A DNA stretch of 63,356 bases, filler included, from Thermodesulfobacteriota bacterium (GTDB lineage Bacteria; DASVDK01), in NCBI GenBank assembly GCA_036381125.1. It is 6 parts of 6 records of this genome, joined end to end, with 100 filler letters (N's around TTAATTAATTAA, not from the genome) between each part and the next. Parts side by side here need not be neighbours in the genome. Positions count along the whole stretch, not along the records: positions 13,915 to 41,488 come from DASVDK010000332.1; 5 more parts are not named here. One strand, 5' to 3'. Of the stretch, positions 32,207 through 56,002 are shown piece after piece. Position numbers and translations under genes: made by a program. Numbering within the stretch: the first letter of the stretch is position 1; each line of letters opens with the position of its first letter. The notes beneath the pieces were generated by a model. It ran no database searches, was not told where the DNA came from, and was given only the letters and a program-made list of their open reading frames with translations.

Positions 32207-32943
32207 GCCCTCGCGCCCTCGCGGTCCTCGTTGCCGAGGTCGCCGTGACGCTGGTGCTCGCGGCCGCGGCGACGCTCCTGCTCCTCGTGCCGGGGACGGT
32301 GCCGCTCGTGGACCGGACGCTCGTGCCGCTCTGGGCGACGCTCGTCCTGCGGCTCGCCGGCGTGCGATTCACCGCGACGCGTGCGGCCGAGCTGCCCGCC
32401 GGTCCGGTGGTCTTCGCCGCCAACCACCGCAGCCACTTCGACATCCCGGTCCTCTGGCTCGCCCTCGGCCGGCCCTTTCGCTTCGTCGCCAAGCGGGAGC
32501 TTGCGCGCATCCCGTTCTTCGGATGGGCGCTGCGCCTGCTCGGCCACGTGATCGTCGACCGGGGCGACAGCGCGGCGGCGCAGGCCACGATGGCGCGCGC
32601 GGTCGACCGGGTGCGCGGCGGCGTCTCGGTGCTCGTCTTCCCGGAGGGGACCCGGGGCGAGCCCTCGCGGTTCGCGCACGAGCCGGTCGCCCCCTTCAAG
32701 AAGGGGGGCATCATCCTCGCCATCCAGGCGGGCGTGCCGATCGTACCGGTGGCGATCGCCGGCACGGAGCGGATCCTGCCGAAGCACGCCATCGCCATCC
32801 GGCCGGGCGAGGTGCGGGTCGCGATCGGGAAGCCCATCCCCACGACCGGCCTCACCGAGGCGGACCGCACCCGGCTCACCGAGGAGGTGCGCGCCGCCAT
32901 CGCCGCCGCCCTCGATCCGGCGTCGGCGGGGGTCGGCGGATGA
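32203..32943 (+). CDS. plsC: 1-acyl-sn-glycerol-3-phosphate acyltransferase
   Basis: NHRSHFD, AKREL, FPEGTR. Confidence 0.88.
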   Translation: MSPRALAVLVAEVAVTLVLAAAATLLLLVPGTVPLVDRTLVPLWATLVLRLAGVRFTATRAAELPAGPVVFAANHRSHFDIPVLWLALGRPFRFVAKRELARIPFFGWALRLLGHVIVDRGDSAAAQATMARAVDRVRGGVSVLVFPEGTRGEPSRFAHEPVAPFKKGGIILAIQAGVPIVPVAIAGTERILPKHAIAIRPGEVRVAIGKPIPTTGLTEADRTRLTEEVRAAIAAALDPASAGVGG

Positions 32944-33245
32944 GCCGACGCGGCTCCCGGGCCGAGCTGCCGGTCGAGGTCGAGATCCTCAAGGAGAAGG
33001 CCAGCGCGCTCGGTCGGGTGGGCGAGCGTCTCGACGGGTCGCTGGCGCGACTGGCCGACCTGGCGGCCCGGATCGCCGAGGCCGGCCCGGACGCCAGGGC
33101 CGCGCTCGTCGACGAGTACCGCGCGGAGCGGGCGCGGGCGCGCGAGTTGCGGTACTACCTCGTGGTCCAGCGCGAGGCGCTCGGCCTGCGGCGCCACGCG
33201 GACGTGGACCGCGCGTACCCGTTGCCGCCCGACATCCCCGAGTGA
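32940..33245 (+). CDS. hypothetical helical protein (DUF6665-like)
   Basis: ATGA overlap; EKASALGRVGERL..YLVVQREALGLR pattern. Confidence 0.7.
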   Translation: MSRRGSRAELPVEVEILKEKASALGRVGERLDGSLARLADLAARIAEAGPDARAALVDEYRAERARARELRYYLVVQREALGLRRHADVDRAYPLPPDIPE

Positions 33246-33258
33246 CCGAGGGCCCGTC

Positions 33259-33996
33259 ATGAGCACCAAGGTGTTGCTGGTCGACGACGTGAAGTTCTTC
33301 CTGGAGCTGGAGCGGTCGTTCCTCGACCGGGAGGGGTTCGAGGTCCTCGTGGCGGACAGCGGGCCGGCCGCGCTCGTGACGGCGCGCCAGGAGCGCCCCG
33401 ACCTCGTGCTCCTCGACCTCAACATGCCGGTGATGAGCGGCGACGAGGTCTGCCGCGCCCTCAAGCGCGACCCGCAGACCGGGCGGATCCCGGTGATCAT
33501 GGTCACGTCGGGGCAGAAGGAGGAGGACCTCGAGCGCTGCCGCGCCGCCGGCTGCGACGGCTTCCTGCGCAAGCCGCTCAACCAGATCGAGCTGCTCGAG
33601 ACGATCGGGCGGTTCCTCAAGGCCCAGGCCCGCGTGGCCCCACGGATCCCGGTTCGCGTTCCGGTGACGCTGGTCGTCCTCGGCAAGGACCGCGCGCCGG
33701 CCGGCGCCCCCGTCGAGGCGACCACGGTCGACGCGAGCACCGGGGGGCTCTACGTGGAGCTGCTCGAGCCGCCGGCGCTCGGGACGCCGGTCTCGGTGAC
33801 CTTCACGTTGCCGGAGTTCACCGCGCCGGTCCGCGCGCAGGCGGTGGTCGTGTGGGTGAACCGGCCCTTCGACAAGCTGAAGGGGACCGTCCCGGCAGGG
33901 ATGGGGCTCAGGTTCGTGGATCTGCCCCCCAGCGTCAAAGGGGTGCTCGAGCTGTTCGTGAGCCGCAGCCTCGCGGCCCGCAGGGGGAAGTCCTGA
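33259..33996 (+). CDS. response regulator with C-terminal PilZ domain
   Basis: receiver LVDD/LLDLNMP/KP; PilZ RxxxR (RVAPR) and DxSxxG (DASTGG). Confidence 0.88.
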   Translation: MSTKVLLVDDVKFFLELERSFLDREGFEVLVADSGPAALVTARQERPDLVLLDLNMPVMSGDEVCRALKRDPQTGRIPVIMVTSGQKEEDLERCRAAGCDGFLRKPLNQIELLETIGRFLKAQARVAPRIPVRVPVTLVVLGKDRAPAGAPVEATTVDASTGGLYVELLEPPALGTPVSVTFTLPEFTAPVRAQAVVVWVNRPFDKLKGTVPAGMGLRFVDLPPSVKGVLELFVSRSLAARRGKS

Positions 33997-34797
33997 ATGC
34001 GCATCCTGGTGAGCAACGACGACGGCATCAACTCCAAGGGCATCCGGCTCCTCGCCGCCGAGCTGCGAAAGCTCGGCGAGGTGACCGTCGTGGCCCCCGA
34101 CGCCGAGCGGAGCGCGGTCGGGCACGCCATCACGCTCTCCGATCCGCTCCGCGTGAAGGAGGTCCGGGAAGACGGGGAGCTCTTCGGGTACGCCGTCAAC
34201 GGCACCCCGGCCGACTGCGTGAAGATTGCCATCAACGCGCTCCTGCCCGAGCCGCCCGAGCTGGTGGTCTCCGGCGTGAACCTCGGCGCGAACGTGGCGA
34301 CCGACATCATCTACTCGGGGACCGTGTCGGCCGCCACCGAGGGGACCATCATGGGCGTGCCGTCCATCGCGGTCTCCCTCAACACCTTCGTGAACCCGGA
34401 CTTCCAGCCGGCCGCCCGCTTCGCCCGCCTCCTCGCCCAGGAGGTCCACACGCGCGGCCTGCCGCAGGGAACGCTCCTCAACGTCAACGTCCCGAACCTC
34501 CCGTGGGATCAGATCGTCGGCGTGGTGGTCGTGCGCCAGGGACGGAGCCGGTTCGTCGAGACCTTCCACAAGCGGATCGACCCCCGGAACAACACCTACT
34601 ACTGGCAGGCCGGCGAGATGGTCGTCATCGAGGAGGGCGAGGACGTCGACGTCGCCGCGCTCCGCGCGGGCAACATCACCGTCACGCCGATCCACTACGA
34701 CCTCACCAACTACGCCGAGCTCGAGAACCTCAAGCGGTGGAACCTCGGGGCCCTCGTCCACGGCGACGAGAAGGTCAAAAAATTGCGCACGCGGTAG
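33997..34797 (+). CDS. surE: 5'/3'-nucleotidase SurE
   Basis: SNDDG, GTPADCV, SGVNLGAN, YSGTVSAA. Confidence 0.96.
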   Translation: MRILVSNDDGINSKGIRLLAAELRKLGEVTVVAPDAERSAVGHAITLSDPLRVKEVREDGELFGYAVNGTPADCVKIAINALLPEPPELVVSGVNLGANVATDIIYSGTVSAATEGTIMGVPSIAVSLNTFVNPDFQPAARFARLLAQEVHTRGLPQGTLLNVNVPNLPWDQIVGVVVVRQGRSRFVETFHKRIDPRNNTYYWQAGEMVVIEEGEDVDVAALRAGNITVTPIHYDLTNYAELENLKRWNLGALVHGDEKVKKLRTR

Positions 34798-34806
34798 CTT
34801 TTTCTC

Positions 34807-34834
34807 TTGCGTCCGCGCGAGACCTCGTGATAAT
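34807..34834 (+). promoter_or_regulatory. putative promoter for the structured RNA/microprotein unit
   Basis: TTGCGT-N16-GATAAT just after the surE stop. Confidence 0.45.
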
Positions 34835-34839
34835 TCGAC

Positions 34840-35080
34840 GGACAGGGTAACGTTCGTGTCCCTCAACGCTCGATGTCGTAACCACACCGAGCATCGGACA
34901 CGGAAGGGACTCCAGAGCTGCTCGCACCCCGCAGCGTCGCCAGGTGAATGCGAAGGCGACCCGGGACAGCGCAACCCGAGGAGAGGCCTCGAGGCGAGCG
35001 GCGCCCAGGGTGACGTGGAGCGACGGGCACCCAGGGTTCGGTAGGCCTCTCGTGATGCAGATGTCGTCGGAGTTGTGGCC
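34840..35080 (+). ncRNA. candidate structured RNA / long 5' leader of unknown class
   Basis: six consecutive stems visible by eye plus loop-loop complementarity (see findings). Confidence 0.5.
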
Positions 35081-35097
35081 GAAAGGAGGTGATCGAC

Positions 35098-35175
35098 ATG
35101 CCGGCGAAGAAGTCCTCGGCCAAGAAGTCGACCGCGAAGAAGTCGACGGCCAAGAAGAGCACGAAGAAGAAGTAA
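35098..35175 (+). CDS. 25-aa Lys-rich histone H1-like microprotein MPAKKSSAKKSTAKKSTAKKSTKKK
   Basis: AAAGGAGGTGATC SD at 35082-35094; ATG..TAA; 15-nt repeats varying mainly at synonymous positions; absent from the ORF track. Confidence 0.8.
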   Translation: MPAKKSSAKKSTAKKSTAKKSTKKK

Positions 35176-35336
35176 TGCTCCTGGGGGCGGGGACCCCCGA
35201 ATCGTCGGCTCCCCCGGCACAGGCCGGCAGACGGGAGCCGCACCGGTCCCCGCCCCGACTTTCCCCCCGGACCCGACTCACTCCTGCGATGCTGCCGGAC
35301 GCCACACCCAGAGGGCCCGAGAGGCCCGAGCCCGAC

Positions 35337-36251
35337 ATGGTTCGCGTGCGTGTCCCTGCCTCGTCCGCCAACCTCGGCCCCGGGTTCGACGCCATCGGCC
35401 TCGCCCTCGGCCTGTTCAACACCATCGTCGCCGAGCGGGCGCCCGTCTGGGAGATCGACGGGGAGCGGGACGAGGCCCGTCTCGCGGCGCATCCGGCCTA
35501 CCGGGGCGCCCGGCGCGCCCTCGAGTGGCTCGAGGCGCGCGGCCTTCGCCCGCGCGGCGGGGGGCCGGCCCTTGCCATCCGCCAGCGCAACGAGATCCCG
35601 GCCGCTCGGGGCGGCCTCGGCAACAGCGCCACGGCCGTCGTCGGCGGCCTCGTCGCCGCCGGCTGCCTCGCCGGCCACCCCCTCTCCGACGCGGAGCTGC
35701 TCGACCTCGCGACCGAGGTCGAGGGCCACCCGGACAACGCCGCGGCCGCGGTCCTCGGCGGCTTCGTCGTGGCGGTGCGGACCGAGCGGGGGGTCGTCGC
35801 GCGGCGGCTGCCGCTCGTGAACCCGCCCCGTGTCGTCCTCGGCATCCCGGCCACGCAGGTCGACACGACGTGGGCGCGAGCCCGCCTGCCGGCGTCCGTC
35901 CCCTTCGCGGATGCCGCGTTCACGGTGAGCCGGGCCGTCCTGCTCGTGGCGGCCCTCGCCTCCGGCGATCACGCCTGTCTCGCGGCCGCCATGGAGGACC
36001 GCCTGCACACCCCCTACCGCTCGTCCCTGGTCCCCGGCCTCGACGCGGCCCTCGCCGCGGCGCGCGAGGCCGGCGCGCTCGGCGCGGCGATCTCCGGCTC
36101 CGGCCCCACGGTCATCGCCTTCGTCCCGCCAGGCTCCCCGGACCTCGAACGATCGATCGGCGGCGCGATGGCCGGTGCCTTCGGCCGCCATGGGCTCCCC
36201 TGCGAGGTCCGGGTCGTCGACATCGAGCCCACGGGCGCGACCGTCATCTGA
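35337..36251 (+). CDS. thrB: homoserine kinase
   Basis: VPASSANLGPGFD, IPAARGGLGNSA (GHMP motif), EGHPDN, ISGSGPT; alternative start at 35289. Confidence 0.93.
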   Translation: MVRVRVPASSANLGPGFDAIGLALGLFNTIVAERAPVWEIDGERDEARLAAHPAYRGARRALEWLEARGLRPRGGGPALAIRQRNEIPAARGGLGNSATAVVGGLVAAGCLAGHPLSDAELLDLATEVEGHPDNAAAAVLGGFVVAVRTERGVVARRLPLVNPPRVVLGIPATQVDTTWARARLPASVPFADAAFTVSRAVLLVAALASGDHACLAAAMEDRLHTPYRSSLVPGLDAALAAAREAGALGAAISGSGPTVIAFVPPGSPDLERSIGGAMAGAFGRHGLPCEVRVVDIEPTGATVI

Positions 36252-36318
36252 CCGCTCCCCTCCGCGGGCGGCTCACGCGGCCCGTGGCGCCCGCGGTGCG
36301 GCACGGCCCGCCGCGCGC

Positions 36319-36347
36319 TTGACTCGGCGCGCGGGGCCTGATAGACG
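36319..36347 (+). promoter_or_regulatory. putative promoter of a leaderless transcript
   Basis: TTGACT-N17-TAGACG, 7 nt before the ATG at 36355. Confidence 0.45.
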
Positions 36348-36354
36348 CCGGGCC

Positions 36355-37407
36355 ATGCGGCAGCGCGGCGAGGCCGTCCACCTCCTCGGCGATCTCATCA
36401 CGTTCACCATCAAGCGGGCCGACGTGCGGACCGCCAACCTCGCGATCGACCGCCTCGGCGATCGCCTGGAGGCGATCGCGCGGGATGACCTCCCACGGGC
36501 GTCCGGCTCGGCGGAGGTCTTCGCCGACGAGGTGGCCTACCACGCCGCGCACCTCGCGCGGGCCTGCCTCGAGGTGCGGGACGAGGAGAACCTCGAGGCG
36601 GTCGTGCGGATGGTGGAGCGGATCGCCGTGGCGCTCCTCGAGACCGGTCACGGGTCGGCGGCCGCACCGCTGGTGAGCCATCTCGTCTCGCTGGGTCGCG
36701 AGCTGGTCCGCCGGGCGGAGGGCGGCAGCCTCCTGGCGGTCGCCGCCGCGCTGGAGCGAGCGGGGCGCACGCTCGGCGACGACCCGGCCGCCCAACTGCT
36801 CGACCCGGTGGCCTCGGGGCTCGGCGTCCTCGGCGTGCTGGCCGCGGACCAGCGCTTCGAGGCCGATTCGCTCGACCCGACGGGCGGCACGGCGGCCGAC
36901 CCGGTGCGCGCGGTCCTCGAGGCGCTCGAGCGGCTCGCGCGCCTCGCGGTCGCACGCGGCCTCGAGGCCGGGGCCGCCGCCGCGCTCGCCGCCGTCTCGG
37001 CCGTGGGGCGCGCGATCGCCGGGAGCGCCGCGTCCGGCTCGGCGGGTCAGGCTGCCGCCGTCCTGCGGGGCGTGGCCGAAACCGCGGCCCTCGCGGGGCG
37101 TGCCGCGCCGGTGGCGGCGGCGCTCCCGGCGCTTGCCGACCTGGCCGAGGCGGGCCGGCGGCTCGACCGACCGGACGTCGTCGAGGCGGCGCTGCGGGCG
37201 CTCGCCGCGCTGGGCGAGACGCTCGAGACCCACGCGGTGACCCTCGGCGATGGGACGGACGGCGCCGCCGCGTGCGCGCGCCGCCTGCGGGAGGCGGGCG
37301 ACGGCTACGAGTACCTGGTCGCGCGCGCGCTGCGCGCGGCCGGGGAGGGGACCTTCCGTCGCCGGTTCCAGGGCGGCACGGCGCCGGCGGGGCCGCACGG
37401 CCGGTAG
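36355..37407 (+). CDS. hypothetical Ala/Leu-rich alpha-helical repeat protein
   Basis: coding-like codon usage; amphipathic helical repeats; no family recognised. Confidence 0.65.
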   Translation: MRQRGEAVHLLGDLITFTIKRADVRTANLAIDRLGDRLEAIARDDLPRASGSAEVFADEVAYHAAHLARACLEVRDEENLEAVVRMVERIAVALLETGHGSAAAPLVSHLVSLGRELVRRAEGGSLLAVAAALERAGRTLGDDPAAQLLDPVASGLGVLGVLAADQRFEADSLDPTGGTAADPVRAVLEALERLARLAVARGLEAGAAAALAAVSAVGRAIAGSAASGSAGQAAAVLRGVAETAALAGRAAPVAAALPALADLAEAGRRLDRPDVVEAALRALAALGETLETHAVTLGDGTDGAAACARRLREAGDGYEYLVARALRAAGEGTFRRRFQGGTAPAGPHGR

Positions 37408-55925: not shown

Positions 55926-56002
55926 TGGCGCGCCCGGCAGGACTCGAACCTGCTACCCGCGGCTTAGAAGGCCGCCGCTCTATCCAGATGAGCTACGGGC
56001 GC
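55926..56002 (-). tRNA. tRNA-Arg (anticodon TCT)
   Basis: GCGCCCGTAGCTCATCTGGATAGAGCGGCGGCCTTCTAAGCCGCGGGTAGCAGGTTCGAGTCCTGCCGGGCGCGCCA: cloverleaf, TTCGA T-loop, encoded CCA. Confidence 0.96.

Follow-up and report, generated by a model that had tools for sequence, protein, structure and literature searches.

The window analysed here is a stretch of 63,356 nucleotides, filler included, with a GC content of 72.4%, which was joined from six parts of a Thermodesulfobacteriota genome (GCA_036381125.1). Between surE and thrB it contains a gap of 539 nt, in which a separate, real-looking and unannotated small gene for a 25-residue lysine-rich peptide is located. On the plus strand, this unit comprises a sigma-70-like promoter candidate (34807 to 34835), a 5' leader of about 240 nt (34842 to 35082) whose start is taken from the promoter candidate, an extended Shine-Dalgarno (SD) sequence (35083 to 35094), an open reading frame (ORF) of 25 codons (35098 to 35175) and a 3' hairpin (35184 to 35262). 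An ORF of this size escapes gene callers. Comparisons within the lineage are based on the nearest relative, G001, which is 95-96% identical over the locus and the sole genome of its phylum in the collection compared; covariation can be read from this one close pair and from partial variants recovered from sequencing runs.

The SD sequence AAGGAGGTGATC is 12 nt long and ends 3 nt upstream of the ATG at 35098, from which the ORF (MPAKKSSAKKSTAKKSTAKKSTKKK) runs through four AKKS(S/T)-type pentapeptide repeats to a TAA at 35173-35175; ribosome-binding site (RBS), start and stop codon are all found where the sequence-only reading of this locus had placed them. Among the 25 codons, 12 encode Lys, 5 Ser, 4 Ala and 3 Thr, and no other Lys-rich small ORF is present in the window. 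With Lys accounting for 48% of its codons the micro-ORF stands out from its neighbours, thrB containing no Lys codon at all (304 codons, 35337-36248) and surE 9 in 266. Each of the 25 codons has G or C in its third position, much as in the genome's real genes with their GC content at third positions (GC3) of 0.95-0.97. From SD sequence to stop codon (35083-35175), none of the 93 nucleotides differs from G001, and it is the ORF within this unit that appears to be under selection.

The 11-mer AGGAGGTGATC occurs at 18 sites in G001 compared to a single site for its reversed control. Three of the other 17 sites have a start codon no more than 12 nt away, and not one of the 17 opens a Lys-rich ORF. 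The complement of the 11-mer is located at the very 3' end of 16S rRNA in G060 and G327, two genomes of other lineages considered below. A pattern search for the 16S 3' end was without result, and an Rfam SSU search retrieved no 16S rRNA from G001; the anti-SD match in this organism is therefore a presumed one. Searches with the peptide gave no match in Pfam or PDB and only a sub-threshold match to Rv3852_fam in NCBIfam (E 0.066; 13.7 bits versus a cut-off of 100), while the exact peptide sequence, like those of four look-alikes described below (5/5), is missing from a protein collection with 15 billion entries.

Starting 9 nt past the stop codon, the 3' hairpin consists of an outer stem formed by GGGGCGGGGACC (35184-35195) and GGTCCCCGCCCC (35245-35256) and an inner stem (35206-35213/35233-35240), followed by GAC TTT. 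It folds better than dinucleotide shuffles (n = 200, the control used for all folding values given here), with z = -3.77 and 1 of 200 shuffles reaching it. Seven differences separate this hairpin from that of G001 and none is disruptive: C35206T gives a U.G pair, four changes fall into the internal loop (35228-35232), and 1-nt deletions at 35211 and 35233 are paired, shortening both arms of the inner stem together. Hence, the structure is conserved between window and relative. Because only GAC TTT follows, the hairpin is terminator-like or a 3' stabiliser, not a canonical terminator.

The sequence-only reading had regarded the leader as a multi-hairpin RNA of undescribed type, tiled almost end to end with stems. 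A script-based check of the pairs found every complementary segment that had been listed. As a whole, however, the region folds no better than shuffled controls: the minimum free energy (MFE) of 34830-35100 (271 nt) is -108.3 kcal/mol compared to a shuffle mean of -106.05 (z = -0.42; equalled by 68 of 200 shuffles), and the opposite strand gives z = -1.02. Sub-windows, which were picked after the fact, behave unevenly, with values of -2.41 for the 5' stem-loop (34842-34912; 6/200), -0.43 for three small hairpins (34914-34980; 61/200), -2.84 for a hairpin closed by 9 bp (34979-35053; 1/200) and -1.97 for the SD region (8/200). Thus, the tiling is mostly what chance yields in a sequence of 65% GC, with two hairpins as possible exceptions. 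The first of them (34845-34912, plus strand) combines stems A and B of the stems lettered A to G here with a closing helix and is common to the structures of the window, of G001 and of the alifold consensus; both changes in G001 keep pairing (34854 U.G to C-G, 34884 A-U to G.U). The second (34981-35051, plus strand) has the 9-bp closing stem GAGAGGCCT/AGGCCTCTC, stem F, which is invariant in G001 and hence uninformative, and it is absent from the whole-transcript MFE structures of both window and relative. A repeat or mobile-element origin of this second hairpin was discarded, as the window and G001 each contain just one copy of the leader.

Nothing known to Rfam was found in the leader. At gathering scores, Rfam 15 detected nothing in the whole window but one tRNA (55929-56002); the families thus unmatched include tmRNA, RNase P, SRP and 6S RNA, the lysine riboswitch, cobalamin, c-di-GMP and c-di-AMP, and the thr, his, leu and trp leaders. 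At E ≤ 10, 34700-35400 gave three chance-level matches (E 1.3-4.4; 12-17 bits versus cut-offs of 43-50), none of them in the leader. A protein-coding leader was also considered: the only plus-strand ORF of at least 60 aa lying wholly within it (34856-35044, 62 codons) is broken in G001 by a 1-nt deletion at 34967, and a coding role was therefore rejected. A role as CsrA sponge was dismissed as well, since eight GGA motifs were counted by eye against about six expected from a rough chance estimate.

Comparison with the relative was calibrated by the fourfold-degenerate sites of six genes, of which 109 of 1004 differ (10.9%). The leader (34842-35082) carries 12 substitutions and 1 indel in 241 nt (5.4%), and a control intergenic region (32941-33258) differs at 18 of 318 nt (5.7%). 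Within 34842-35097, 13 changes were counted, 5 of them in the 104 nt of the proposed pairings and 8 in the 152 unpaired nt, corresponding to 4.8% in stems and 5.3% elsewhere, so that the stems have not been spared. All five changes in pairings break a pair: stem C (34917-34921/34931-34935) loses two of its five pairs, and one pair each is lost from the kissing loop, from stem G, which was to close a multi-way junction, and from the alternative pairing near the RBS. No change falls in any of stems A, B, D, E and F, 31 pairs in total, which is uninformative either way. Overall, the leader shows no compensatory, five pair-breaking and two one-sided pair-keeping changes, a tally of low power as it stems from a single relative at 95% identity, and the predicted central fold differs between window and G001. 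The 13-nt loop of hairpin D carries four linked changes in G001 (34942-34949); the same four changes, alone and on a window-like background, were seen in a contig of a root metatranscriptome, which suggests a multi-base event or recombination.

These data bear on the possibility that the leader is a structured cis-regulatory RNA, serving as site of autoregulation by the peptide or as ligand or thermal sensor, and governing access to the SD sequence. With 256 nt up to the start codon it is long for a leader, it diverges at half the rate of fourfold sites, 31 pairs are unchanged, and two sub-hairpins as well as the SD hairpin give local z values of -2.0 to -2.8. On the other hand, its overall folding is ordinary, all changes within the proposed pairings are disruptive without a single compensation, stems change about as often as the remainder, and its central fold is unlike in the two strains. 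Furthermore, blastn and nhmmer searches of 206 loci (1.2 Mb, including 160 surE neighbourhoods) retrieved the G001 copies only, the control intergenic region is equally diverged, and an analogous family of micro-ORFs (see below) is conserved only from the SD sequence onward. We therefore regard a structured regulatory leader as unlikely, and the undescribed cis-regulatory or non-coding RNA of the sequence-only reading is not supported by shuffling or by compensation, at the low power that one relative affords. At most, the leader would be a stabiliser or a translational-control region.

Upstream of the leader, the promoter candidate consists of a -35 element TTGCGT (34807-34812) and a -10 element GATAAT (34829-34834) or ATAATT (34830-34835), separated by a spacer of 16-17 nt and located just behind a T-rich tract (34798-34806). 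G001 has the same two hexamers, while its spacer differs at 34817-34819. Regarding expression, 20 public sequencing runs from 12 studies contain part of a 901-nt query of this region; 14 of them are DNA runs, and 6, from 4 studies, are RNA runs holding 12-16% of its words each. Logan contigs of four runs, two DNA runs (X3 and X4) and two metatranscriptomes of different studies (X15 and X18), were aligned to the locus. In the DNA runs (plastisphere, mangrove), a G001-like strain spans the whole stretch. X15 yielded a contig of 342 nt covering 34888-35228 with 15 differences and 1 insertion, and X18 one of 224 nt covering 34890-35108 with 4 differences, all in the loop 34942-34949. Neither metatranscriptome holds a contig of at least 90% likeness over surE or thrB. 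This speaks against carry-over of DNA and in favour of a transcript present in greater abundance than those of the adjoining genes; beyond that, missing RNA cover elsewhere in the stretch is no sign of absence. In all four runs, both metatranscriptomes included, the Lys-repeat codons (35097-35178) show a 4- to 20-fold rise in depth. This rise comes from many short contigs of AAG-rich coding sequence of other organisms, and Lys-repeat genes of other taxa appear to be well expressed in the sampled communities.

The position of the ORF ahead of a gene of the aspartate family raises the question of attenuation, in which translation of a Lys-codon-rich leader peptide would control termination at the 3' hairpin and read-through into thrB. 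Like leader-peptide attenuators, the unit has a short ORF in which one amino acid is overrepresented (12 of 25 codons Lys), followed by a strong hairpin and, 81 nt later and in the same direction, by an amino-acid biosynthesis gene without clear promoter. Short, amino-acid-rich ORFs working as attenuators are known, such as the mycobacterial polycysteine ORFs (10.1101/834739). Yet Thr, the end product to which thrB contributes, is represented by three codons only, and folds of 35060-35244 and 35098-35232 contain no antiterminator, the 5' arm of the hairpin, as long as the 3' arm is still to be transcribed, pairing with itself rather than with the ORF. No thr, his, leu or trp leader family was matched by Rfam in 34700-35400 at E ≤ 10, and the titles and abstracts searched held nothing relevant on a lysine leader peptide. 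In contrast to attenuators, the ORF has an extreme SD sequence and a 250-nt leader of its own, and its analogues lie away from biosynthetic genes, either stand-alone, near uvrA, or as tandem pairs closed by a terminator. Altogether, attenuation of thrB appears improbable.

These analogues were obtained by searching 400 genomes for an SD sequence, ATG and early AAGA, a pattern found in 15 genomes with one site each; at four of these sites, including one in G001, the ORF is basic and 16-25 aa long. Within the order of G060, matches were obtained in 40 of 41 genomes (the tallies for this order and its phylum both include an unpublished genome, G402), and all 20 loci inspected encode 21-22-aa peptides of the type MAAKKKAAKKK(A/G)TKKKAAKKKK behind GGAGGTGAT. 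Synonymous changes of Ala codons are frequent in these ORFs and are accompanied by length changes that preserve the frame. Past the ORF, the loci have a 3' hairpin motif that is invariant and a terminator that covaries; conservation begins only at the SD sequence. In G060 itself, the ORF is flanked by a sigma-54 activator gene and by uvrA, from which it is 500 nt away, and has its own terminator, an arrangement that favours an independent gene over a leader peptide. Across the phylum, 35 of 39 loci inspected contain such an ORF of 15-30 aa, many starting with MPAKKK, and a DNA match was obtained in 73 of 81 genomes, partly originating from longer Lys-repeat proteins.

As further features of that phylum (L187-L206, L230-L245), a near-invariant hairpin motif GGAYYKGGCACGTCC is located 6-20 nt past the stop codon in 32 of 39 loci, followed by the covarying terminator; a change from C to U in the motif gives a U.G wobble, and the motif has no Rfam match. 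A sigma-54-like TGGYAY-N5-6-YTGC element was found 115-165 nt upstream in 12 of the 20 loci of the G060 order, with a gene for a GAFTGA-type activator upstream in most. In the order of G327, all 12 loci (in 10 of 17 genomes; L249-L260) carry two tandem Lys-rich micro-ORFs. In the first, which encodes 16-28 aa, the Cys at position 3 is conserved (MACAKKP... or MPCKKP...), whereas the second encodes 13-16 aa and starts with MPAKKK or MPVKKK; both have a strong SD sequence and share one terminator. None of the look-alike peptides has a match in Pfam or NCBIfam.

The window ORF resembles these genes in having at most 30 codons, an M(P/A)AKK start, Lys-rich repeats and the extended SD sequence GGAGGTGA. 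The peptides of the G060 phylum, the G327 order and the window are alike in measuring 13-30 aa, in beginning with M-(P/A)-A-K-K, in their Lys-rich repeats, mostly of five residues, and in a Lys run before the stop codon, and their genes share an SD sequence GGAGGTGA(TC) and a hairpin past the stop. They differ in that look-alike repeats consist of KKK plus two residues, whereas those of the window peptide consist of KK plus three; moreover, the window unit is without the 3' hairpin GGAYYKGGCACGTCC of the G060 phylum and has a sigma-70-like instead of a sigma-54-like promoter. A literature search at the level of titles and abstracts returned no description of free-standing poly-Lys micro-ORFs. 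Alternatively, the RNA itself might be the product, its 12-nt anti-SD complementarity holding or titrating 30S subunits with the peptide being incidental. In its favour, the SD duplex is far beyond the needs of initiation, the RNA is better covered than its flanks in two metatranscriptomes, and the analogous ORFs are very highly conserved at the nucleotide level. However, the analogues keep their frame through whole-codon length changes, show synonymous variation of Ala codons and invariably finish with a Lys run ahead of the stop codon, which is the signature of a coding sequence and makes an RNA product hardly credible.

With somewhat better than even confidence, we thus read the unit as an abundant monocistronic mRNA for a polycationic microprotein resembling a histone-H1 tail. 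According to this proposal, the sigma-70-like promoter just past surE would drive a transcript of about 420 nt, in which a leader of some 250 nt is followed by a 12-nt SD sequence presumably fully complementary to the 3' tail of 16S rRNA, the 25-codon ORF and the very stable 3' hairpin. The leader would not act as a conserved ligand-sensing or multi-helix RNA. Most likely, the 5' stem-loop and the 3' hairpin would protect the ends of the mRNA, and this protection together with the extreme SD sequence could result in high peptide output. The ompA 5' untranslated region (UTR) is a 5' stem-loop stabiliser of mRNA, and the window leader is similar in being long and in carrying, some 3 nt from its putative 5' end, a stable hairpin, again on an mRNA proposed to be abundant.

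By its look, the peptide of four AKKS(S/T) repeats would be the detached Lys-rich tail of a histone-H1-like protein and might bind polyanions such as DNA, rRNA and ribosomes, or polyphosphate. Histone-H1-like Lys-rich repeat proteins of bacteria include the tail of mycobacterial HupB and Rv3852. To these can be added Chlamydia Hc2, which is built of lysine-rich pentamers (PMC2848022), and the histone-H1-like AlgP (PMC9239181). Such proteins and the window peptide are both composed of tandem Lys/Ala/Ser/Thr pentapeptide repeats, and both use Lys rather than Arg even in a very GC-rich genome. In contrast, known members comprise 100-240 aa or form tails on folded domains, whereas the window peptide consists of 25 aa alone and stays below the threshold of the Rv3852 family profile, as given above. 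The very small ribosomal proteins bTHX, bL37 and bS22 (24-33 aa) are likewise extremely basic, with a non-repetitive mixture of Arg and Lys. They are comparable to the window peptide in size, extreme basicity and expected high expression, but the peptide is repetitive and a PDB search revealed no sequence likeness; an association of the window peptide with the ribosome is pure conjecture.

The microprotein gene probably belongs to a wider class. More tentatively, and as an idea we would hold to be less than probable, this class would be a deep, unannotated one, made up of poly-Lys microproteins that stand alone (M[PA]AKK..., 13-30 aa, built mostly of pentapeptide repeats), use the strongest SD sequence of their genome, occur in at least three unrelated lineages (the single-genome phylum of the window, most of the sampled G060 phylum and the order of G327) and serve as abundant polyanion binders in the manner of detached H1-like tails, in the present case with possible feedback on the own leader.

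Several observations weigh against these interpretations. The complete identity of the ORF between window and G001 provides no synonymous or non-synonymous signal, about 12 fourfold sites predicting about 1.3 changes, and a search of 300 genomes with the peptide found it in G001 only and in none of the 299 others. For low-complexity 25-mers, homology of the look-alikes to the window peptide cannot be proven; the motif GGAYYKGGCACGTCC is missing from 35176-35262, and no sigma-54-type promoter was seen by eye in 34798-35097, a segment to which the regex scan was not applied. A leader diverging at half the fourfold rate may be under some constraint, although the control intergenic region equals it. 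Both the predicted transcript ends and translation of the ORF are derived from sequence. The promoter of the sequence-only reading stands insofar as a promoter-like element can be read at 34807-34835, whereas a consensus scan of 34500-35500 reported neither promoter-like nor terminator-like sites, the T-run after the 3' hairpin being too short for the terminator scan. Finally, the Logan contigs are strandless and of low depth (2.9-4.1). Their shared start near 34888 was considered as an RNA 5' end and rejected: the contig ends at 34885/34888 and 35228 are probably assembly breaks rather than RNA ends, as they coincide with strain single-nucleotide polymorphisms (SNPs) at 34884 and 35228/9.

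Low RNA depth and the outcome of the consensus scan would also suit a mere spacer whose hairpins and ORF have arisen by chance and in which the RNA signal reflects read-through or DNA carry-over, and high GC content does inflate pairing. Opposed to this are the 93 unchanged positions of SD sequence and ORF, a perfect 12-nt SD sequence at the right spacing, G or C at every third position, the compensatory indel in the 3' hairpin and the lack of RNA contigs over both flanking genes, which render a chance spacer highly improbable. With the structured-RNA reading having failed its tests, the locus is close to ordinary on that count and the peptide gene is the more interesting part. If the look-alikes formed one functional class, a common and highly expressed bacterial polycation would have been overlooked in annotations, and if true, this would bear on the nucleoid, ribosome or polyphosphate biology of poorly known phyla.

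Both neighbours of the unit are well-defined genes on the plus strand. Upstream and outside the unit, surE (33997-34797) encodes a 5'/3'-nucleotidase (NCBIfam NF001492, E 3.3e-96; Pfam PF01975), and its ATG is directly abutted by the TGA of a gene (33259-33996) for a protein with response-regulator receiver and PilZ domains. Downstream, thrB (35337-36251) encodes homoserine kinase (TIGR00191, E 6.9e-63); beyond it, about 1.1 kb of the window (36265-37372) is swapped for about 90 nt in the G001 contig, with flanks of 93-95% identity. The lineage is an isolated one: in surE-anchored scans, no SurE besides the 97% sister exceeded 61% identity among genome contigs or 57% among metagenome contigs. 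A DNA search of 60 genomes gave matches elsewhere to Lys-repeat coding sequence only. One of these, in G016, is a 173-aa ORF (L002, 1102-1620, minus strand) with a long Lys/Glu-rich N-terminal extension, whose C-terminal 55 or so residues may, judged by eye only, resemble ribosomal protein L30.

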